Source: a virus (Duplodnaviria; Heunggongvirae; Uroviricota; Caudoviricetes). From it: DNA of 29,026 nucleotides. A program made the position numbers and the translations under genes. The first letter of the stretch is position 1, and each line of letters begins with the position of its first letter. Below the pieces are notes generated by a model, which saw only the letters and a list, made by a program, of their open reading frames with translations, searched no databases and was not told the DNA's origin. The DNA is taken from IMG/VR virus record IMGVR_UViG_2671180727_000014, positions 1 through 29,026 of that record; one strand, written 5' to 3'. Shown piece by piece: positions 1 to 21,198 of this stretch.

Positions 1-3590
<3,590 letters not shown>

Positions 3591-3796: not shown

Positions 3797-5032
3797 TTAA
3801 CCAAATATTTTTTGAACAACTTCACGAGCCGCTTGTGCAGAAGCTGAAGGGAGTTTGTTAATGAAAGAACGCTCAATACCTGTCACAAAGTCGCCTCGCA
3901 TCATTCCAATCTTGGCCGACAACAAAAGTTCACGAGGGCCAATTGGCTGACTGATAAGGTGTTCTTCGTATCCATCGCGAACGATACCGGCAAACTTAAC
4001 CATCTTTTCTGCGTATTCATCCACGATACCGGCATTTATCAACATGTTGATCTCTGCCTCTTTGCTCATGTATTTCACATTCGAAACGATGCCAAAACGT
4101 GAAAAGTTCGCGGCGTTCTGGATGTTTGTACCCTGGTACAAGCCGGTTTCATCACCAGAACCGTTTGTGTTGCCAGTGCCAATGAAAGCAAACCGTTCAT
4201 GCGGAGTAATGCGACGCCATTCTGGAGTTGCCTCTTTGATGACCAACGCCTCACCTTCCAGCACTGGCTGATACACGCCAAGAATTTGTGGAAACGCAAA
4301 GTCGTATTCATCCGCGAGGTAAACCCAGCCATGCTTCATTGCGAGCGCAAGCAAGCCAGGCTCGAAATACGTAGAGCCATCACGCGCCAGAATTTGCCCC
4401 GTAACATGTGCCTCTTCCATTGATGCTGTATGTTGGGCACGGATCAACGGACGATTGAGCAAAGCACATAGCTGTGTAGGCAATGACGATTTGCCTGTTC
4501 CTGCATGACCCCACAAATAGCCAGGTATGCCAAGTTCAAGCATCATGAAAATATCTTTGATCAGTTCGAAGTCGCCATATACGTAGCCCTTCTTCACTTC
4601 TGGAACGAACTCTGGATACGGCGTATTGACGTTGACGCTAACCATGAGCGGCGTCCCACGTTTTGTTCCGAGTTCTTCCACCGTTACGTTTAGCAGTTCG
4701 TGAGCTGCGACCAGATCTGTCTTGTACTCAACTGTGCCTGTGTAGCCTGGGCTACTGGTCAAGCCAGAAGATTTCGCCATTTCGCTTTTTTGCTCGGCAC
4801 GTTTAGCTTGAATTGCATCAAGTGCCTTTTTCGATAGCGTTGGTTCATCTGGAAACTGCGTTGTGTACATTTTCAGTACGGTGTCAGGATCGGCATCTTT
4901 TACTGACTCAGGAATGCCCTCGCAATTACCATTGGCTACATGGGACTTAAAATAGTGAAATGATTTGCCGCACCACTTGCAAACAAGGTAATCAGAAGGA
5001 TTTTTATCATTTTGCAGTGCAGTAGTAGTCAT
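3797..5032 (-). CDS. AAA+ ATPase of the MoxR/CobS-like class, 411 aa
   Basis: Walker A GHAGTGKSS and Walker B-like VYLADEYD; N-terminal Cys cluster (CKWCGKSFHYF...GNC); sits immediately downstream of a vWA protein on the same strand. Confidence 0.8.
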   Translation of the reverse strand: MTTTALQNDKNPSDYLVCKWCGKSFHYFKSHVANGNCEGIPESVKDADPDTVLKMYTTQFPDEPTLSKKALDAIQAKRAEQKSEMAKSSGLTSSPGYTGTVEYKTDLVAAHELLNVTVEELGTKRGTPLMVSVNVNTPYPEFVPEVKKGYVYGDFELIKDIFMMLELGIPGYLWGHAGTGKSSLPTQLCALLNRPLIRAQHTASMEEAHVTGQILARDGSTYFEPGLLALAMKHGWVYLADEYDFAFPQILGVYQPVLEGEALVIKEATPEWRRITPHERFAFIGTGNTNGSGDETGLYQGTNIQNAANFSRFGIVSNVKYMSKEAEINMLINAGIVDEYAEKMVKFAGIVRDGYEEHLISQPIGPRELLLSAKIGMMRGDFVTGIERSFINKLPSASAQAAREVVQKIFG

Positions 5033-7547: not shown

Positions 7548-7724
7548 TCAATCAATCCATTCTAACTTATACTATGGTAAGGAATACTACTAAAATTTGT
7601 ATCAATACTGAATACATTCATATCATATGCAAGTTGATTTTCTTACCTATTTTGGGCTAATTTTTCTCCGTGCAATGGCCTTTAACCGGTCTTTTAAGTG
7701 CCTATCGAAAAAAATGATAATAGC

Positions 7725-7767
7725 TTTACAACCCTAACCTTTGATGTAATATCGGTAAGCACTTACC
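7725..7767 (+). promoter_or_regulatory. sigma70-like promoter (TTTACA-16nt-TAATAT) with a perfect palindromic operator GGTAAGCACTTACC just downstream of the -10
   Basis: TTTACA at 7725-7730, TAATAT at 7747-7752, palindrome GGTAAG-CA-CTTACC at 7754-7767, about 30 nt before the ATG of the HTH gene at 7799. Confidence 0.5.
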
Positions 7768-7798
7768 AGAGAGAATTGAACGCGCAAAGGTTGTAACC

Positions 7799-9283: not shown

Positions 9284-9381
9284 ATGACAATCACCGAGTT
9301 ACGCCGATGCACTGTATAAGTAAACAGTATATTAGGCATAGATTCTTATAGGATCAAGAGTAAAAGTAACTCATTTTCAGC

Positions 9382-9414
9382 AATGATTCCATACATAGTA
9401 GGTATGGAATCATT
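9382..9414. repeat. lox/dif-like site: perfect 13-bp inverted repeats flanking a 7-bp asymmetric spacer (AATGATTCCATAC-ATAGTAG-GTATGGAATCATT)
   Basis: Read directly from the sequence; lies about 100 bp upstream of the tyrosine recombinase start codon (9283). Confidence 0.55.
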
Positions 9415-9493
9415 TAGACGTTGTTTTTTGAATTTTAAGGGAAACAGGAGTGAGTTTGGTGGGAATAAAAACGGCTCTTGTGAGCCGTTTAAA

Positions 9494-9739
9494 TCAGAGG
9501 GTGCTGACGTATGCAGCCAGTTCTGTGTATCCGCCAATCGGTTGGCCATTGATCAGTACCTGGGGGATAGTCTCTACCGGTTTACCAACAATTTCACTAA
9601 GTTTTTCCTTGTCGATACCGGCAGTGGTGATGTCGATGTACTCATAATCACCGTAGCCATGTCCCTTTAGTTGCTTCGCCAGCTCGACCGCACGTTTGCA
9701 GTATGAACAGTTATCTCGTCCGTAGATAACGACTTTCAT
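9494..9739 (-). CDS. glutaredoxin-like redoxin (NrdH/Grx-type), about 81 aa
   Basis: Thioredoxin-fold signature with CxxC active site: KVVIYGRDNCSYCKRAVEL. ORF track starts at a GTG at 9742; the adjacent ATG at 9739 is the likelier start. Confidence 0.85.
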   Translation of the reverse strand: MKVVIYGRDNCSYCKRAVELAKQLKGHGYGDYEYIDITTAGIDKEKLSEIVGKPVETIPQVLINGQPIGGYTELAAYVSTL

Positions 9740-9864
9740 CACTTCACCTCGTGCAACTGCTGTTCATTAACGATGATTGTGCCAATTTCGCAGTAGTGGA
9801 TACATGGTTTTGACTTCAGTGCCTGATGAGCTGCGCGACGCGCCTGTTTACGTTTGTTTCCCAT
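9739..9864 (-). CDS. small basic protein (41 aa, MGNKRKQARRAAHQALKSKPCIHYCEIGTIIVNEQQLHEVK), translationally coupled to the glutaredoxin gene
   Basis: Hand-translated from the minus strand; its TGA stop overlaps the glutaredoxin ATG (ATGA overlap); AAGGA about 8 nt upstream of its ATG. Below the ORF-track size cutoff. Confidence 0.3.
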   Translation of the reverse strand: MGNKRKQARRAAHQALKSKPCIHYCEIGTIIVNEQQLHEVK

Positions 9865-9912
9865 ATTGAGTCCTTTTAAGTGAATAATGAAAGAACTATA
9901 CCGACAAATAAT

Positions 9913-9928
9913 AGGTAAGTCATTACCT
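9913..9928. promoter_or_regulatory. palindromic site AGGTAAGT-CATTACCT upstream of the small ORF/glutaredoxin operon
   Basis: Inverted repeat AGGTAA/TTACCT; member of the dispersed GGTAAG/CTTACC palindrome family. Confidence 0.4.
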
Positions 9929-9943
9929 ATTATTTGTGCATTA

Positions 9944-9964
9944 TCCCTCTACATAGTAGAGGGA
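9944..9964. other. perfect hairpin (9-bp stem TCCCTCTAC/GTAGAGGGA, 3-nt loop) just downstream of the HNH gene stop
   Basis: Read directly; no clear U-tract on either strand, so terminator function is uncertain. Confidence 0.4.
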
Positions 9965-9976
9965 TATCGTCATGAC

Positions 9977-10789
9977 TCACGGCAGTTTTGCTCTAATTTC
10001 GAGTAATTTCTGTGCCGTTATGCTGATTTCATACGCCAGATCTTGTGTTTGGTTAATGATTCCGTAATAGCGCTCAACCTGATCAGGATAAAAACGTCTG
10101 ATATGGGGGATATCGATATAATCATAATACCCAAGCCCTCCAGCAGAATGTTCTCTGAACAGCGCCCAAAAGTTGTTCACTTTCCCGACCAACTCCATAC
10201 GGATTGTTTCTAAAACAACATCATTGAAGCTGTAAAAGGGGTTATGGGCAATATTATCAAATGCGTAGAGAGGGTCGGTAATGTCGGTGCTAACTTTTGC
10301 CCGGAACTGTTCGCTCTTCAGCATTTGGAGGTAGTTGTAATTAAAAATATCAGTAATGGCTTTTAAAACACCGACGTCTCTTTCTGAGTAATTGTTCTGA
10401 CTCACCTGGTGCGTCATCTGTAGCAGAAGAGATTGTTGAGTTTCGGCCAGCTGCTTCCAGTTTTTCAATTGCTCAACGGAATAGATAGTGTAGTCAGAGT
10501 CAATGAGTGCGCCATGTGAACGACACATCCATATACCGTTATCAATCGAGCTTCGCTGTTCTGGGGTTAAGCTAGGATCATATCTCGGTCCACCTGGCGC
10601 TGCTGCTGTAATATGTGCCGCAATACCATTATTAATCCTGCTGTTTGTATCACTGCTATCTGGACCTACAGTTGTCTGGTTGCAGCCAGGATAAGAGCAC
10701 TTCCAGCCTACGCGTTCGGCTAGTGTTCGCTTCACCGATGGGGAAAAATCATCTCTGTTACTCACATTTAACCTCGCAGTGTTAAACAA
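9977..10789 (-). CDS. HNH-nuclease-domain protein with a C-terminal domain of unknown function, 270 aa
   Basis: N-terminal HNH-like motif: GWKCSYPGCNQ ... AAHITAAAPGGPRYD ... DNGIWMCRSHGALID. The C-terminal ~170 aa has no motif I recognise. Confidence 0.65.
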   Translation of the reverse strand: MFNTARLNVSNRDDFSPSVKRTLAERVGWKCSYPGCNQTTVGPDSSDTNSRINNGIAAHITAAAPGGPRYDPSLTPEQRSSIDNGIWMCRSHGALIDSDYTIYSVEQLKNWKQLAETQQSLLLQMTHQVSQNNYSERDVGVLKAITDIFNYNYLQMLKSEQFRAKVSTDITDPLYAFDNIAHNPFYSFNDVVLETIRMELVGKVNNFWALFREHSAGGLGYYDYIDIPHIRRFYPDQVERYYGIINQTQDLAYEISITAQKLLEIRAKLP

Positions 10790-10796
10790 TCTATGG

Positions 10797-11351
10797 CTAT
10801 TTGCGTTTGTCTTCTTTCAAGCGTGAAACTTTAATCATCTTATCGGTGATAGAAAGCAATGTTACACCCTCTTTTTCGTTCACAAAGCCTGCACCGTTAA
10901 TCACCATTACTAAACGATCCTTCCCTCGATAGACTTCATAATACTTGCCTGCACCACAGGTCTTTGTCTCAATACAGTCCATACCTGAGATAGCTTCTTG
11001 GTCGAAAATTCTGTCTTTCGTTGCTACCGGTTTTCCGTACTCCCTTGTCATCATTTCACCGATCTGCATGAACGTATACTTACCGACATTTGTCGTTAAA
11101 GACGATTCAACCTTTCCATCAATGAGATTTCCATGCGTATGTGGTTCCTGTTCATTCGGTGCATTTTTATCTTGAAGAGCGAATACCTCAATACTGGGTG
11201 TTTGCTCTTGGAACTGGGCTTTATAGTTCTGTGCAAGATCGCTTTTATCTCTACCTATTAAGGTAATTTTGTCGATCTCCGATTCGTTACATCCCGTCAG
11301 AGCGAGCATGATTACCAGAGAGGCAAGAATATTGAGGTTGCGCTTATTCAT
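10797..11351 (-). CDS. lipoprotein (signal peptide with lipobox LTGC), about 184 aa
   Basis: MNKRNLNILASLVIMLALTGCNE; GGAG about 8 nt upstream of the ATG at 11351 (ORF track starts at an upstream GTG at 11378); 8-nt gap to the HNH gene on the same strand. Confidence 0.65.
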   Translation of the reverse strand: MNKRNLNILASLVIMLALTGCNESEIDKITLIGRDKSDLAQNYKAQFQEQTPSIEVFALQDKNAPNEQEPHTHGNLIDGKVESSLTTNVGKYTFMQIGEMMTREYGKPVATKDRIFDQEAISGMDCIETKTCGAGKYYEVYRGKDRLVMVINGAGFVNEKEGVTLLSITDKMIKVSRLKEDKRK

Positions 11352-11478
11352 TGGCTTATCTCCATGTTTTTCTGCCACATCCTGTCACCCACATGCAGGC
11401 AGTCTAATGCTGCCGTTGCTAAATGAAGACCCAAAAGTGGTAAAACCATACCTGGAAATATTCTGGAGTCAACCCAGT

Positions 11479-11503
11479 AAAAAAGGGGCCGAAGCCCCTT
11501 TGA
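11479..11503 (-). terminator. intrinsic terminator downstream of the tRNA cluster (minus strand)
   Basis: Minus-strand reading gives AAAGGGGC-UUCG-GCCCCUUU followed by a U-tract (plus strand: aaaaaaggggccgaagcccctttgaatttt). Confidence 0.7.
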
Positions 11504-11575
11504 ATTTTGCGCTGAAAAAAGTGTTGCTAGGATGTTAGCAAGCTATGGTTAAGAACGTCTGCCGTAATTGTCTAT

Positions 11576-11653
11576 CACAGCGTTGAGCGGTCTGGTTTAT
11601 GTTAGCGGAGTCTTAATCTGGGTGATTAAAAGGCCAAACCGCTCAACGCTGTG
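11576..11653 (-). other. 78-nt structured element: perfect 15-bp inverted repeat (CACAGCGTTGAGCGG / CCGCTCAACGCTGTG) enclosing a 48-nt loop, directly 3' of tRNA-Ser
   Basis: Read directly; no tRNA T-arm motif, so not a canonical tRNA. Confidence 0.45.
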
Positions 11654-11655
11654 TC

Positions 11656-11742
11656 TGGCGGAGAGTAATGGAATCGAACCATCATCGCTTGCGCAATGGG
11701 ACGGTTTTCAAGACCGCTTGAGCACCATGCTCCCTACTCTCC
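11656..11742 (-). tRNA. tRNA-Ser (anticodon UGA), long variable arm, CCA encoded
   Basis: Reverse complement GGAGAGT...GCGGT-CTTGAAA-ACCGT...GATGG-TTCGATT-CCATT-ACTCTCC-G-CCA: 7-bp acceptor stem, anticodon loop CU-UGA-AA, T-loop TTCGATT. The D-arm is not fully resolved by hand. Confidence 0.7.
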
Positions 11743-11966
11743 GGCCGTTGTGGTGGCCGGTACTGAATCTCCGGCATACGGTGCAGCCAATTAGGACTAC
11801 GGACGATCACCGCTCGCGAAAGGGAAGATTTGCGGCCGCATTTCCCTAACATCCAAGAAAGCTATCGCATCAGTCTGCGAATCCACCACAACGGTAAGAT
11901 CACTACCTTTCGACCAGTCATTGTGCACATGAACGACGATTAACCGTAATGATCTTATCGTTGTAT

Positions 11967-12042
11967 TGGTGCCGGTTAGCGGACTCGAACCGCTGACATC
12001 CTGCTTACAAGGCAGGCGCTCTACCAACTGAGCTAAACCGGC
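11967..12042 (-). tRNA. tRNA-Thr (anticodon UGU), CCA encoded
   Basis: Reverse complement GCCGGTTTAGCTCAGTTGGTAGAGCGCCTGCCTTGTAAGCAGGATGTCAGCGGTTCGAGTCCGCTAACCGGCACCA: perfect 7-bp acceptor stem, anticodon loop CTTGTAA, T-loop GGTTCGAGTCC. Confidence 0.85.
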
Positions 12043-12046
12043 AATT

Positions 12047-12133
12047 TGGTGGGGAGTGATGGAGTCGAACCACCCGAGTCGCAATGACAGTAGATTTACA
12101 GTCTACCCCGCTGCCCCTACGGACTAACTCCCC
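12047..12133 (-). tRNA. tRNA-Tyr (anticodon GUA), long variable arm, CCA encoded
   Basis: Reverse complement GGGGAGT...GTAGA-CTGTAAA-TCTAC...GGTGG-TTCGACT-CCATC-ACTCCCC-A-CCA. Confidence 0.8.
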
Positions 12134-12138
12134 TAAAT

Positions 12139-12213
12139 TGGCGATGGTGGGTGGATTCGAACCACCGACCAGTTGGTTAACAGCCAACTGCTCTACCGCT
12201 GAGCTACACCATC
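12139..12213 (-). tRNA. tRNA-Asn (anticodon GUU), CCA encoded
   Basis: Reverse complement GATGGTGTAGCTCAGCGGTAGAGCAGTTGGCTGTTAACCAACTGGTCGGTGGTTCGAATCCACCCACCATCGCCA: 7-bp acceptor stem, anticodon loop CTGTTAA. Confidence 0.85.
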
Positions 12214-12406
12214 AATTCAGCACTGCCAGTATTTATTACTCAACAGTGCCAATCGCGACGGTTTAGTTTCTGCCAGGAAACGCACCGCTACTTGCACTTT
12301 TCGTTAGTGCCAGACGCTTTCGACTTCGCTCAATAGTAGAAGGCAAAATCTTTAAGTAGATGATGTTTCTGAGGACAGCACCTACTTTGTAATTTATACA
12401 ATGTGA

Positions 12407-12421
12407 TGTATGGAATCATTT
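12407..12421 (+). repeat. copy of the 15-mer ATGTATGGAATCATT (half-site of the lox-like inverted repeat)
   Basis: Exact 15-mer, also present at 13418-13432 (+), at 9382-9396 (minus orientation), and with one mismatch at 9400-9414. Confidence 0.6.
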
Positions 12422-12478
12422 GTTGTGAAAACAGGCACCAATGGCAACAGTGGTTAAACCTACACAACAATCCTGTCT

Positions 12479-12602
12479 TCACAACGTTGAGGCCACTACT
12501 CCGATTGAATGTTTGCCCAACATGTTACATATCAACGCTCGCCGGTATCTCTGTGAATAGAACCTTAGAATTGATAAAAATGTAATGGCCTCAACGTTGT
12601 GT
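12479..12602. repeat. long-range inverted repeat: 16-nt arms (CACAACGTTGAGGCCA / its complement) separated by about 90 nt in a 780-bp ORF-poor region
   Basis: Read directly: ...cttcacaacgttgaggccact... at 12479-12496 and ...atggcctcaacgttgtgtg... at 12585-12602. Confidence 0.5.
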
Positions 12603-12763
12603 GCTGGCTAACCATACCAGCCGGGCTACGTCGCCGCTTTTTAACCCAGTATAAACGACATAATTGAACAAAATGACGTAACAGGATGGGCGGTCAGTGG
12701 CTAAGAATCCGGGAGTCATATGGAGTTGAAAATATACCAACCGCCCATTCTGTTACTTCATCG

Positions 12764-12787
12764 GAGGGAACATGAATGTTCCCTCCT
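12764..12787. repeat. 24-bp palindrome GGAGGGAACAT-GA-ATGTTCCCTCC
   Basis: Read directly; no flanking U-tract, so it looks more like a protein-binding site or RNA structure than a terminator. Confidence 0.5.
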
Positions 12788-12960
12788 GCGTTCTGCAATC
12801 ACACTCGCTCAGTGTGTCCCATTTCGGTAACGAGGCTGGAAACTGACCTCGCTGGTGTTTGGCTTATTAGGCTACTGCCAGATAGACTTCTTCGTTTGCA
12901 CTTGTATTTAAGTTCAAACAGTCGCGTCTCAACGAAAACAAAGTCATCTTATACATAAAA

Positions 12961-12982
12961 GATAAGTAAGTAAATACTTATC
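12961..12982. promoter_or_regulatory. palindromic site GATAAGTA-AGTAAA-TACTTATC
   Basis: 8-bp inverted repeat arms; member of the dispersed TAAGTA/TACTTA palindrome family. Confidence 0.35.
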
Positions 12983-12991
12983 ATTGTATTT

Positions 12992-13282
12992 TTATTCGGT
13001 TGTGACTTTTTTGATCAAGGCCACTCTACGACTAGGTGTTCTTGTGATGGTGGCAGTGAACCGTTTCGCTTGGATAGTAATGGTTTCGTTCTCCTTAAGT
13101 TGCCCGTAGCGAGTTTCCACCAGGGTGCCAAGACGCCACAGACCATCATCGATACGTTTATGACTAGCAAATTTTATCAGCAACAGTTTTACGACTAACT
13201 GACCTACGTAAAAGGCGAATGCGACTCCGGCCGCTAAGAAATAGGTGGCCAACCACCAGTCCCAAGAAGTTAAATTGCTCAT
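12992..13282 (-). CDS. small membrane protein (96 aa, one N-terminal transmembrane helix)
   Basis: Hydrophobic stretch WLATYFLAAGVAFAFYVGQLVVKLLLI; weak AAGG ribosome-binding site upstream. Confidence 0.45.
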   Translation of the reverse strand: MSNLTSWDWWLATYFLAAGVAFAFYVGQLVVKLLLIKFASHKRIDDGLWRLGTLVETRYGQLKENETITIQAKRFTATITRTPSRRVALIKKVTTE

Positions 13283-13427
13283 TTTCTAACCTTTGTTTCA
13301 TGAACTACCCGATACACACGCTTTCCGATGCACAGTGTTTTGGTTTTAAGTTCCTGCTTAATTAAATCACGACAGATGCCGAAGCCAATAAGGAAGCCAC
13401 CCATAAAAGCTAATGAGATGTATGGAA

Positions 13428-13643
13428 TCATTTTAACGCTCCTGATTCTACTAATTGCTGTAGCAATACTTTCCCTTTATCAGTTAACTGGTAGTTGGCC
13501 GAGCACCACGTTTCAGAAACGTTTGCAACCAACCCTAAACGCTCTAACTTAGCTCGCGTTTTAGGCTTCCAGTACTCAGGGAACTCCGGCCACTTACTGA
13601 TTTCATGAAGCGTTTCTTTCTCCCTTTTACTTAATACGATCAT
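13428..13643 (-). CDS. hypothetical protein (71 aa), translationally coupled to the ligase gene
   Basis: Start ATG overlaps the ligase stop (ATGA overlap); hydrophilic composition. Confidence 0.5.
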   Translation of the reverse strand: MIVLSKREKETLHEISKWPEFPEYWKPKTRAKLERLGLVANVSETWCSANYQLTDKGKVLLQQLVESGALK

Positions 13644-14962
13644 TCTTTATCTCCGATTCGATCTTCGGTATCGCGTAAGCAACGCGGCCATTTCAGTCGT
13701 GGGTGGCGTAAGCTGCCATCAGGTGTTTTCTCGTGACAATGAACCTCGACAATACGACCACGGTACTTCTCTTTGTTGTTCCAGATCTCGTCCAGATATT
13801 TATGCTTAATGCCACTCGCACGAACGATGACGCCGTTTTCAAGACGAATAACAATTTTTCCAAGCGTGTTGGCAAAACCAGAGTCCGGGTCGCCCGGCTC
13901 AAAATCGATAATTTCACCATCTTCTGAATCTTCGTCTTTTAACTTCCACCAGCTGCGGGTACGTTTAAACTCGTAAACAGAGTTCGGATCTTTGCCCATC
14001 TCCCCTTCTTCGTTATCGTCCAGGCGTTTCATGAAGCGTTCGATGAAGTCTTCGTGGCTATGGATGATGTAGAACGGATGTAGGTGAATGTCTTGCGCGT
14101 AGTCTTCACTGCGATCGTTTTTGAACAACGCCACGAGAATAGCCAGGCGCTCTTTCAGCTTCATACCTGTCTTTGCATACTCTTTGGATTTAGCCTGTGC
14201 CCGCCATTCCGGTAGGAAGAAGTCGAAAACATGATAAATAGCGCCAATTGCCTGCACGTTCTTTTTGCGCAATGCAGATACGGACTGGTTAAATGAACCG
14301 GCTGTTCCTTCACCATCGAAGAAGATGTGTTTGTGGCCTGAAAGTTTGCCTAATTCGAGCATGGCTGGCTTTAGGTGATCGAGAGACGTGATTGGATTAC
14401 CAGTACGAGAAAGGAAGTTCACCTCTTCCTCGTCAACAATAACCTCGCAAATTACTCGCAAACCATCGAGCTTAAGGCTGCCAATCATCGGCCATTTTGC
14501 TTTAGGATTTGGCTTGAAGGGGTATTTGTCGCCTTTTTCTTTATACGGTGACGCCAGCTGCACCTCGAATTTCGGAATGGGATTTTCAAAAACCTTGTTG
14601 CATAGGCTAATCCCAACACCCGCTTTCGGGTCTTTTAAGAGGAAACGACGGAACACGTCCTGCCCATCGGCGCACATTGACGCCACGATAGACTCAACAG
14701 CAGCTATTGCTGCGTTCCCCGTCAGCTCGCGAGAGGCCAGCTTATTCAGTACATCAATGGCTTTTTCGTCACTTGGGACGGACTCACTAAGCGGCTCTGC
14801 CACTTTGTATTTCTTTACCCCAAAACGGATGAAAGGGTTGAGCATCAATGAAACCATGCTTTGTTCAAAGTCATCCATGTTGGCCAATGCCTCTTTTTTT
14901 GCATTGGTTCCCATAGCTTTCATTTCGTCCAGCTTATGCTTAAGTGCGATCAACTTTTTCAT
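13640..14962 (-). CDS. ATP-dependent DNA ligase, 440 aa
   Basis: Adenylation motif I KxDGxR present as SLKLDGLRVICEV; size and layout consistent with phage ATP-dependent ligases. Confidence 0.75.
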   Translation of the reverse strand: MKKLIALKHKLDEMKAMGTNAKKEALANMDDFEQSMVSLMLNPFIRFGVKKYKVAEPLSESVPSDEKAIDVLNKLASRELTGNAAIAAVESIVASMCADGQDVFRRFLLKDPKAGVGISLCNKVFENPIPKFEVQLASPYKEKGDKYPFKPNPKAKWPMIGSLKLDGLRVICEVIVDEEEVNFLSRTGNPITSLDHLKPAMLELGKLSGHKHIFFDGEGTAGSFNQSVSALRKKNVQAIGAIYHVFDFFLPEWRAQAKSKEYAKTGMKLKERLAILVALFKNDRSEDYAQDIHLHPFYIIHSHEDFIERFMKRLDDNEEGEMGKDPNSVYEFKRTRSWWKLKDEDSEDGEIIDFEPGDPDSGFANTLGKIVIRLENGVIVRASGIKHKYLDEIWNNKEKYRGRIVEVHCHEKTPDGSLRHPRLKWPRCLRDTEDRIGDKE

Positions 14963-20018: not shown

Positions 20019-20786
20019 ATGGACGATTTATCGGTATACGCGAGATCATTGGATAAGGCTAAATACTATGTTTACTGTCTCTATGATACAGAAGACAAGA
20101 TGAAAAGACCGTTTTACATAGGAAAAGGCAAATCGACTCGTTGTCTCGATCACATCAAGTATCCCGATGACTCTCCCAAATCCATGCGGATCAAAGAACT
20201 TTTGGCTAATAAAAAATTAGGCATAGATATACTTCGTCATGGTATGGATGAAACCACAGCCAAACTTGTTGAGGCGACATGCATCGACCTTATGGGGGTC
20301 GGAGAGCTTACGAATAAGGTACGAGGAAGTGGTTCCATGATGGGCAGAATATCACTGGACGCCTACCATCACTTAGTGCTGCAAGAGGAAACTGAAATTG
20401 CTCCTGAGCACGCCGGTCTTGCCTTCCTGCTAAACAGCACCTACAAGTCAGGAATGTCCGCTCTGGCATTATATGAAGCTACGCGTGGCGTATGGGCAAA
20501 GGTTCCAAGAGACGAGAATCTCAAATATGCCTACGCTACATATGGTGGGCTGATAATGGAAGTTTATCAGATTGAATGCTGGGTCAAAGCCGGTTCTCAG
20601 CAGTACTTTACAAGGGATATAGCTCTTGGCCCCGACACAAAACGTTATGAATTTGTTGGCAGAATAGCCGATGAGCATATTAGAAAACTGTATGTAGGCA
20701 AATTAATCAAGAAGCCACCAAGCTACGGTAGCCCTTTTGTGAAGGTTGGGGTGGTTAGGACTGAACATAGTGTTAGCGCGGCATAA
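20019..20786 (+). CDS. GIY-YIG nuclease-domain protein with an uncharacterised C-terminal domain, 255 aa
   Basis: N-terminal GIY-YIG signature YYVYCLYDTEDKMKRPFYIGKGKSTRCLDH; the C-terminal ~150 aa has no motif I can name; solitary plus-strand gene with its own terminator. Confidence 0.65.
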   Translation: MDDLSVYARSLDKAKYYVYCLYDTEDKMKRPFYIGKGKSTRCLDHIKYPDDSPKSMRIKELLANKKLGIDILRHGMDETTAKLVEATCIDLMGVGELTNKVRGSGSMMGRISLDAYHHLVLQEETEIAPEHAGLAFLLNSTYKSGMSALALYEATRGVWAKVPRDENLKYAYATYGGLIMEVYQIECWVKAGSQQYFTRDIALGPDTKRYEFVGRIADEHIRKLYVGKLIKKPPSYGSPFVKVGVVRTEHSVSAA

Positions 20787-20802: not shown

Positions 20803-20840
20803 ATGCATTGGCGCAATGTACGCGCCAATGCATGATTTTT
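20803..20840 (+). terminator. terminator hairpin (12-bp inverted repeat ATGCATTGGCGC / GCGCCAATGCAT, 7-nt loop) followed by a T-run
   Basis: Read directly; sits between the convergent GIY-YIG gene and the ParA-partner gene. Confidence 0.6.
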
Positions 20841-21198
20841 AACCTTTCTTCATCAACTCTCGTTTGATTTCATCGGTACGCATCGTGACATCGGCAGCGG
20901 TGATCGCCTCGTTAAGTTTCACGATGTCCTCGATTTCCTGCGGTGTCTTCTCCGCAAGATGGAAAATAGCAGCACGAATCACGTCAGAACGAGTGAACTT
21001 CTCGAAGCGAGGGATGAACTTCATCATCTCCAGCAGTTCGAAGTATTCGTCCTCCAGTGACATTGTGCGGCTTTTAATTTTCTCTTTGCCACGAGTCGGG
21101 CGTCCCTGTGGTCTGACTGGTTGGCGCAAAGGAGTTGTGTTCTTAGCCGGTGCATCAGGCTCTTTGCGCTTTGCTAGGTCACCCATTTTCATGGACAT
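20839..21198 (-). CDS. small partition partner protein (ParG/ParB-like, possible ribbon-helix-helix), 119 aa
   Basis: Immediately downstream of parA and overlapping it by 1 nt; basic Pro/Arg-rich N-terminal tail followed by a compact domain (SRTMSLEDEYFELL...RSDVIRAAIFHLAE). Confidence 0.45.
   Translation of the reverse strand: MSMKMGDLAKRKEPDAPAKNTTPLRQPVRPQGRPTRGKEKIKSRTMSLEDEYFELLEMMKFIPRFEKFTRSDVIRAAIFHLAEKTPQEIEDIVKLNEAITAADVTMRTDEIKRELMKKG

Follow-up and report, generated by a model that had tools for sequence, protein, structure and literature searches.

A putative Cre/lox-like core site beside the tyrosine recombinase gene of SSU5-type phage-plasmids, and conserved isolated copies of its arm

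In this work we analyse a 33-bp inverted repeat that lies next to a tyrosine recombinase gene (int) in a stretch of viral DNA of 29,026 nucleotides (nt), hereafter the window (IMG/VR record IMGVR_UViG_2671180727_000014, positions 1 to 29,026). Judged by its sequence, the window is an SSU5/pECOH89-type phage-plasmid of Escherichia coli: identity to pECOH89 is 100% over positions 9300–9420, many non-mobilizable plasmids of about 110 kb are 98–99% identical to it, and its relatives among phages include Cyrano, PhiR41_1 and SSU5. The repeat is probably a Cre/lox-like core site of the adjacent recombinase, with multimer resolution as its likeliest job and autoregulation of int as a probable second one. 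The observations behind this reading are the anatomy of the site, its co-occurrence and co-variation with the recombinase, a mosaic junction at its edge, a plasmid-only location, and the fold and catalytic residues of the protein. The features of the region are collected in Table 1.

A first-pass annotation of this DNA had called a 13-7-13 inverted repeat at 9382–9414, about 100 bp upstream of the recombinase gene, and both points stand. The arms are perfect over 13 bp on either side of a 7-bp spacer (one mismatched pair appears if the element is taken as 16-1-16), whereas the longest perfect repeats that arise when the window is resampled 30 times under a Markov-1 model, with spacers of 5–9 nt allowed, measure 7–12 nt (median 8). 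The palindrome lies 99–131 bp upstream of the int ATG, which is 115 bp from its centre. The same annotation reported that the half-site 15-mer, ATGTATGGAATCATT, recurs at two distant positions far beyond chance. The excess is real, with five matches in the window at two mismatches or fewer against 0.06 in shuffles, and the copy at 13418–13432 is exact as described; the other had been placed one base off (at 12407–12421), and a copy inside dnaE had been missed. Exact 15-mers are found at 9382–9396 (minus strand), 12406–12420 (plus), 13418–13432 (plus) and 3351–3365 (minus, inside the dnaE open reading frame, ORF), and the right arm of the palindrome (9400–9414) matches with one mismatch. The count suggested for the complete element gives the same picture: the plasmid pERB3f3 (110,850 bp, 98–99% identical) contains the same five copies only, at two mismatches or fewer and all within 10 kb, and one full palindrome.

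Table 1. Features of the window, followed by the corresponding sites of diverged lineages (Int, percentage identity of the recombinase; aa, amino acids; HTH, helix–turn–helix)
Feature	Position	Strand	Remarks
Putative core recombination site	9382–9414		From sequence; same architecture upstream of every recombinase homologue examined; sharp mosaic junction
Left arm of putative core site	9382–9394		AATGATTCCATAC
Spacer of putative core site	9395–9401		ATAGTAG, 7 bp, asymmetric
Right arm of putative core site	9402–9414		GTATGGAATCATT
Putative int promoter	9329–9357	−	TTGATC (9357–9352), 17 nt, TAATAT (9334–9329); begins 24 nt from the palindrome
Far-side element	9415–9440	+	Hypervariable 9 nt (tagacgttg), T6 run, GAATTTT; phage-plasmid lineages only
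Tyrosine recombinase ('integrase'), 367 aa	8180–9283	−	PF00589 and PF22022; conserved catalytic residues; AlphaFold model
HTH protein, 128 aa	7799–8185	+	Convergent with int; syntenic with int in phage-plasmids; absent beside megaplasmid int homologues
GC-rich hairpin and T-run directly 3′ of the grxA stop	9468–9495	−	Fold −14.8 kcal/mol, z = −5.6
Isolated arm 1, AATGATTCCATACATC	3351–3366	+	Inside dnaE, antisense to the ORF; codons 84–88 (C-M-E-S-L)
Isolated arm 2	12405–12420	−	Leader about 190 nt upstream of the tRNA-Asn/Tyr/Thr/Ser cluster, just 3′ of the conserved hairpin GTTGTGAA...TTCACAAC
Isolated arm 3	13417–13432	−	Covers the start codon and first four codons (M-I-P-Y-I) of a conserved 50-aa hydrophobic ORF (13279–13431) and the stop codon of the preceding 71-aa ORF
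Site in Nissabacter-type L169			Int 60%; AATGATTCCATAC-TTATATA-GTATGGAATCATT
Site in K. michiganensis-type L170			Int 59%; TGTGATTCCATAC-TATATAA-GTATGGAATCACA
Site in Xenorhabdus L171			Int 47%; ATGTGACTCCAGAC-GTAGTTA-GTCTGGAGTCACAT
Site in Providencia L177			Int 44%; ATGACTCCAGAC-TACATAG-GTCTGGAGTCAT
Site in Photorhabdus L179			Int 48%; TGACTCCAGAT-TTTATAG-GTCTGGAATCA; intermediate arms

The site travels with the recombinase. A scan for the arms around any 7-nt spacer retrieves 79 viral contigs, in which the arms are fixed by the search itself and the spacers are lineage-specific, with both flanks diverged. In a set of 80 loci retrieved by way of DnaE, the site accompanies int without exception, and the arms stay intact (at most one change, in the outermost base) while Int falls to 74–86% identity and the HTH protein to 57–69%. 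More distant Int homologues were found by protein search and their loci then fetched; with these included, the site is present upstream of int in all 11 lineages examined, over 44–100% Int identity. The distant loci have the same architecture, 11–13 / 7 / 11–13, placed 35–120 bp upstream of the recombinase gene, and arm length is 11–14 bp across all homologous loci. Homologues at 44–50% Int identity (Xenorhabdus, Providencia, Rahnella, Pantoea and Erwinia; L171, L177, L175, L176 and L178, respectively) carry TGACTCCAGAC-N7-GTCTGGAGTCA, so that the arm change from TGATTCCATAC to TGACTCCAGAC is symmetric and in step with the protein, the Photorhabdus arms being intermediate. In a 722-kb Rahnella replicon, a 507-kb Pantoea vagans replicon and a 106-kb Erwinia contig, the recombinase gene stands alone in surroundings of metabolic, fimbrial or transport genes; inspection of these three loci revealed neither an HTH neighbour nor phage genes, and yet TGTGACTCCAGAC-TTAATAG-GTCTGGAGTCATA or close variants stand just upstream of the gene. 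The site is therefore separable from the HTH protein and from anything phage-specific. Together with the junction described below, this persistence beside the gene and this co-variation of the arms support, at the level of comparison, the earlier suggestion of an element built like the core site of a tyrosine recombinase.

The spacer is 7 bp long in every lineage, lineage-specific and never self-complementary, with a loose consensus WTnnTAG. Its polarity is not tied to int transcription, because it is found in either orientation relative to int and has flipped at least twice within lineages (PhiR41_1 against L039, and L041 against other Klebsiella-type elements). In both cases the spacer is inverted between identical flanks, CTACTAT against ATAGTAG in the first pair (L004 8379–8411, PhiR41_1, against L039) and TTAATAG against CTATTAA in the second; in PhiR41_1 and L039 the palindrome extends to 17-7-17. 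Template switching at a hairpin and action of the recombinase are possible origins of such inversions.

On the int side, the TTGATC of the putative int promoter is kept at the same offset in diverged lineages; the promoter as a whole scores under the threshold of a consensus promoter scan. On the other side, a pattern N7-9 / T-run / GAAWTCT(GA) recurs beside the site even where the downstream genes differ. The Rahnella, Pantoea and Erwinia versions of the site, those on megaplasmids among them, do not have this far-side element, which therefore lies outside the minimal site. The 7–9 nt adjoining the palindrome (9415–9440 in the window; far-side flanks in L006–L168) are hypervariable even among near-identical elements, and the length of the T-run varies; this stretch could be a divergent promoter, an UP-like element or a mutational hot spot.

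Signs of use come from the junction that coincides with the site. Comparison of 72 distinct elements gives 539 pairs with 97% identity or more over 300 bp on the int side, and 265 of these 539 are unrelated over 300 bp on the far side (unrelated meaning less than 70% identity, with a random baseline of 58%); a control segment 400–700 bp further into int gives 0 unrelated pairs. Many database alignments end at 9414–9416 of the window. Such a mosaic pattern is what site-specific exchange between co-resident relatives would produce. The cargo on the far side differs between elements: in the window grxA follows directly, whereas Cyrano has CYRAN_43, pLR-60_2 a YafO toxin module, and PhiR41_1 a gadW-like regulator with a 2.5-kb ORF. 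CYRAN_43 is an accessory gene ('moron') whose expression in lysogens is strong, reaching 723 times background (PMC9928086). The whole stretch from the palindrome to the ligase operon (9415–14934, compared with L005 of PhiR41_1, L085 of Cyrano and L180 of pLR-60_2) is a cargo hot spot, and tRNA sets also differ there. As for location, 248 of 5,426 complete E. coli genomes carry the region, and all 290 places are on plasmids with none in a chromosome, which disfavours chromosomal integration. The recombinase family is present in 932 PLSDB plasmids, mostly from Klebsiella (348), Escherichia (229), Enterobacter (92), Pantoea (74), Yersinia (63) and Salmonella (49); 899 of the 932 are non-mobilizable.

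The protein matches the Pfam family Phage_integrase (PF00589) and, below threshold, a central domain (PF22022). In an alignment of 52 homologues R185, R284, R285 and Y316 are invariant and K211, H307 and R281 near-invariant, a pattern that fits the R-K-H-R-H/W-Y catalytic set except for the arginine (R281) at the His-II position. The AlphaFold model (pLDDT, the predicted local distance difference test, 87.6; pTM, the predicted template modelling score, 0.80) has a helical N-terminal half followed by the catalytic fold, and its residues 1–60 are helical, with no beta-sheet arm-binding domain; Pfam arm-binding domains are seen only in the remotest homologues. The best Foldseek matches in the PDB are the core-binding and catalytic domains of lambda Int (E = 3e-7), Tn1549 Int, XerA/XerH and IntI, with Cre below lambda Int, Tn1549 Int and Xer, at E values of about 1e-2 to 1e-1. 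A phmmer search against all PDB chains returned no match at E<0.01. The model thus looks like a recombinase that is simple, Cre- or Xer-style, in its mode of action without being a relative of Cre.

We propose that one recombinase monomer would bind each 13-bp arm, and that two sites so occupied would come together in a synapse, with strand exchange across the asymmetric 7-bp spacer, as at loxP or FRT. Gene and site would form a self-contained module, confined to plasmids, both in SSU5-type phage-plasmids and in large Pantoea, Rahnella and Erwinia plasmids, and it is because the module is found on plasmids only that multimer resolution appears to be its likeliest job: multimers would be resolved to monomers, allowing faithful segregation of the low-copy prophage-plasmid. 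Recombination between co-resident relatives would be a by-product, making the site a module-exchange junction beside the cargo hot spot. Occupancy of the site probably also autoregulates int, since the site lies 24 nt upstream of the putative int promoter. The first-pass annotation had left the choice between multimer resolution and integration; resolution is the better option, given the exclusively plasmid location and a model that lacks a lambda-type arm-binding domain, and integration is disfavoured.

The three isolated arms would most simply be extra single binding sites for the same protein. Common to them is TGATTCCATACATC, the arm followed by a conserved ATC that the palindrome arms lack. 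They occupy orthologous positions, and are conserved, even where the flanks of the lineages compared are down to about 79% identity, synonymous dnaE positions included. In the first 1500 nt of dnaE no invariant run is longer than arm 1 (14 nt, the next being 11, among 60 distinct sequences down to 79% identity), and arm 1 is unchanged across a non-conserved codon (AGA or GGA); in L170 and L171 the DnaE peptide at this position is different and the site is absent. Every lineage with at least one isolated arm keeps arm 2; L169 and L170 do so in altered surroundings, and in L170 the leader copy and the palindrome arms share the same A-to-G change. At the position of arm 3, L170 retains the peptide with other codons (TTG ATC CCA TAC ATT). 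The replacement cargo of PhiR41_1 carries an isolated arm of its own, and in loci with TGACTCCAGAC-type arms no isolated arms were found. Every isolated arm points towards the palindrome, 3–6 kb away; with about four independent contexts this common polarity has a probability of about 1 in 16 by chance and is suggestive only. The 7 nt that follow the isolated arms differ between copies in most lineages.

These properties do not fit the two roles first suggested for the extra copies. Because their positions are orthologous and conserved, even at synonymous dnaE codon positions, the isolated arms are not recombination scars, and they are lineage-specific additions kept by selection, acquired in the SSU5 branch. 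Because they lie 3–6 kb from the core, they are not classical accessory binding sites either, which are found within about 100–200 bp of it. Nor do they represent a site split in two, because the 20-mers at 3351 and 13418 are inverted copies of the same half and not complementary halves. A shufflon-like inversion between them was rejected as well, because the database matches include no inverted isomers and inversion between arm 1 and arm 2 or 3 would break dnaE. Phage SSU5 itself (L086, 13528–13691) is devoid of the 70-aa ORF, the HTH 'repressor', int, the palindrome and grxA, cobT being followed directly by tRNA-Asn, and it keeps all three isolated arms. Its loss of the module is recent, because it is 98.4% identical to an int-positive relative across dnaE–cobT, and the SSU5 type phage may be a recent deletion derivative; we therefore rejected SSU5 as evidence for arms that do without the recombinase, such a recent deletion being uninformative on which protein binds them.

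For the isolated arms the reading that we favour, tentatively, is binding of monomers of the same recombinase. An action through RNA–RNA pairing seems rather unlikely. It is similarly doubtful that the arms are working parts, either with bound monomers that would serve as roadblocks, as barriers to replication forks or transcription, or as partners in long-range synapsis, or as a 16-mer antisense pair in which the tRNA leader or the ORF start would face the dnaE mRNA. Exact copies of TGATTCCATACATC also occur antisense inside int, over codons D-V-W-N-Q, at 4656–4669 of L087 (Klebsiella/Yersinia) and at 10604–10617 of L170 (K. michiganensis-type). Eight other lineages keep W-N-Q, and in all of them codon 203 of int ends in TA (GTA, TTA or ATA); the window has GTT (GGG GTT TGG AAT CAA). 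We set these copies aside as real sites, as they probably reflect chance and coding constraint on the conserved D-V-W-N-Q codons. The leader of the tRNA cluster (12214–12560, minus strand, upstream of tRNA-Asn) contains blocks conserved across lineages, the inverted repeat just 5′ of arm 2 and, nearer the tRNAs, GTCTGGCACTAACG(T/A)AAAGTGCAAGT. The sequence between these blocks is lineage-specific and stem-forming in look, and the leader may be a structured non-coding RNA; an Rfam search returned the tRNAs only and no other known RNA family.

Several points weigh against the palindrome being a core site of the recombinase. The evidence is wholly comparative, and binding, cleavage, strand exchange, resolution and autoregulation are all inferred. 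Recombinase activity is assumed for a protein in which R281 replaces the second catalytic histidine of the canonical set. A mosaic junction of this kind could also result from homologous recombination inside the conserved 33 bp. The phage-plasmid versions of the site carry the additional conserved far-side element (T-run and GAAWTCT). Lastly, the extra conserved ATC of the isolated arms could mean that they have a different binder or a role at the RNA level.

An alternative that would dispense with recombination is that the palindrome is only a transcriptional operator, where a dimeric regulator, either the recombinase as a pure repressor or the HTH protein, controls int and/or a divergent promoter on the far side. 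The position of the site, between the putative int promoter and a far-side T-run/TTGAAT-like element, would suit an operator, as would the synteny of the HTH gene in all phage-plasmids and the very strong expression of the far-side gene CYRAN_43 in Cyrano lysogens (PMC9928086). However, the site persists at solitary recombinase genes without an HTH neighbour, so that the HTH protein is not needed, and we rejected it as the binder for this reason; its own upstream region (7548–7798) contains no copy of the motif. Conserved arms of 11–13 bp, centred 20 bp apart around a 7-bp spacer, form an arrangement that is recombinase-like and not HTH-dimer-like, as in loxP and FRT compared with the lambda and 434 operators. 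An operator also leaves the abrupt mosaic junction unexplained, and a recombinase that is kept in 932 plasmids with its catalytic residues conserved presumably recombines something. Autoregulation of int is compatible with a core site, and operator function may be an added role. We consider a pure operator improbable.

A second alternative is that the element acts as an RNA hairpin, terminator or attenuator, and that the isolated copies pair with one another, GAUGUAUGGAAUCAUU in the dnaE mRNA being the exact complement of AAUGAUUCCAUACAUC, which occurs in the tRNA leader and at the start codon of the 50-aa ORF. The palindrome does fold as a hairpin, at −17 to −18 kcal/mol (z about −5), and a T-run follows it on the plus strand, the feature that had been named as potential support for a terminator. 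This T-run begins 9 nt after the stem, however, and none is found on the minus strand, which is the gene strand; a terminator scan finds no terminator there, the stem has only 5 G-C pairs out of 13, grxA possesses a likely GC-rich terminator of its own, and the palindrome persists without a T-run upstream of the solitary recombinase genes of the megaplasmids. Concerning the isolated copies, the one inside an ORF and those at 5′ ends have opposite polarities and are thus mutually complementary on the gene strand, the leader copy adjoins a conserved hairpin, and the single SSU5 variant (A to G) would keep a G-U pair. Nevertheless, the arm sequence is conserved and not its pairing alone, the two observed single-base variants of isolated copies are uncompensated in the same element, and no Rfam match was obtained. 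The RNA reading could be true for the isolated copies alone; for the element as a whole it is very improbable.

Least probable of all is that the palindrome is an attP-type site that integrates the phage-plasmid into the chromosome or another replicon. In its favour, the gene bears the annotation 'site-specific integrase', lambda Int and Tn1549 Int are the nearest folds among solved structures, and some homologue clusters include contigs of 0.3–0.9 Mb. Against it, none of the 290 E. coli places is chromosomal, the large replicons inspected carry the solitary gene with an intact full palindrome and not split attL/attR halves, and there is neither a beta-sheet arm-binding domain in the model nor arm-type repeats around the core.

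The putative core site and its recombinase can be compared with several known systems. In P1, a single tyrosine recombinase, Cre, acts on a 13-8-13 site, loxP, without arm-type sites, and resolves multimers of a low-copy plasmid prophage. The present pair is similar in having a recombinase gene beside a simple inverted-repeat site and no arm-type sites, on a low-copy plasmid prophage; it differs in its 7-bp spacer and in a protein that is not a Cre orthologue, the Cre fold being matched far less well than that of lambda Int. To our knowledge, P1 has not been described as carrying conserved single arms at other places in its genome. With dif/cer/psi of XerCD, XerH/difH and XerS/difSL, the site shares an inverted-arm core with a spacer of 6–8 bp, used by Xer for replicon dimer resolution, and XerH and archaeal XerA are among the structural matches. 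Unlike Xer, the recombinase is plasmid-encoded and adjoins its site, no accessory ArgR/PepA-type sequences were identified here, and we know of no relationship between the palindrome arms and dif. TnpI/IRS of Tn4430 also has two inverted recombinase-binding motifs beside the recombinase gene and extra copies of the motif, which are accessory sites in that transposon. The Tn4430 accessory repeats lie within about 100 bp of the core, in contrast with isolated arms that are 3–6 kb away, one of them in a coding region. Functional sfx sites of the R64 shufflon, recombined by Rci, consist of one conserved arm and a spacer, and the isolated arms resemble them in being one-armed; however, the following 7 nt are not shared between copies in most lineages and no inverted isomers are seen. 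Lambda Int provides the best structural match for the core-binding and catalytic domains, but the lambda protein and attP have an arm-binding domain and arm-type sites that are missing here, and short imperfect core sites in place of a perfect palindrome, and no chromosomal copies of the region were found in the complete E. coli genomes. Finally, the P1 C1 operators are asymmetric 17-bp sites scattered over the genome, some of which are paired into palindromes. The dispersed single asymmetric sites and the one locus with two copies as a palindrome recall this organization, except that here the palindrome follows the recombinase gene outside phages too and the isolated copies number three or four only, none of them at an obvious promoter.

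In the searchable literature, including reviews and phage-plasmid surveys, we found no description of the site, nor the motif itself. On comparative grounds the recombinase/site pair is an uncharacterised example of a well-known type, a tyrosine recombinase with a lox-like core site for plasmid maintenance. It is widespread, both in phage-plasmids of clinical relevance and in megaplasmids of Pantoea and Rahnella.

Nearly all genes of the window are carried by the minus strand, in the transcriptional order ligase, small ORFs, tRNA-Asn/Tyr/Thr/Ser, two ORFs, grxA, palindrome and int, followed by the convergent 128-aa HTH gene, a 70-aa ORF, cobT, cobS and dnaE. The palindrome sits in the 210-bp gap between grxA and int, and the hairpin at the grxA end of this gap is likely a terminator that parts grxA from the int transcription unit. 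The HTH protein is labelled 'putative repressor' in phage Cyrano, and its homologue is expressed in Cyrano lysogens (PMC9928086). In the more distant phage-plasmids L169 (15864–19463) and L170 (15421–19024), DnaE is called as two ORFs of about 785–790 and 386–389 aa instead of one of 1172 aa. Two other perfect palindromes are present in the window. One, 15-4-15 and AT-rich (ACAAATAATAGGTAA / TTACCTATTATTTGT, 9904–9937), lies between grxA and a 270-aa ORF. The other, 12-7-12 (ATGCATTGGCGC-N7-GCGCCAATGCAT, 20803–20833), is flanked by a 255-aa ORF (20019–20786, plus strand) and by an ORF (20839–21198, minus strand) downstream of a ParA-like gene; it may serve as a bidirectional terminator, or in partition or replication.

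Phage-plasmids of the SSU5/pHCM2/pMT1/pECOH89 type are common in clinical Enterobacterales, and their mode of plasmid maintenance has been little studied; the family includes carriers of blaCTX-M-15 (the near-identical pERB3f3) and the pMT1-type plasmids of Yersinia pestis. A defined recombinase with a 33-bp site would give a testable account of how these plasmids are maintained, and the site offers an explanation for the adjoining cargo hot spot, with its toxin–antitoxin modules and highly expressed accessory genes. As protein and site are unlike Cre/loxP, they may provide a new recombinase/site tool, for which natural arm variants (TGATTCCATAC, TGACTCCAGAC) and many spacer variants exist. 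The unusual part is the conservation of isolated arms, one of which constrains the stretch that encodes the phage DNA polymerase. If monomers do bind these polar sites, phage replication genes (dnaE, the ligase-side operon and the tRNA operon) would be tied to the plasmid-maintenance recombinase, and if the arms act either as barriers or as antisense pairs, this would be a mode of control undescribed for Cre/lox-type systems.

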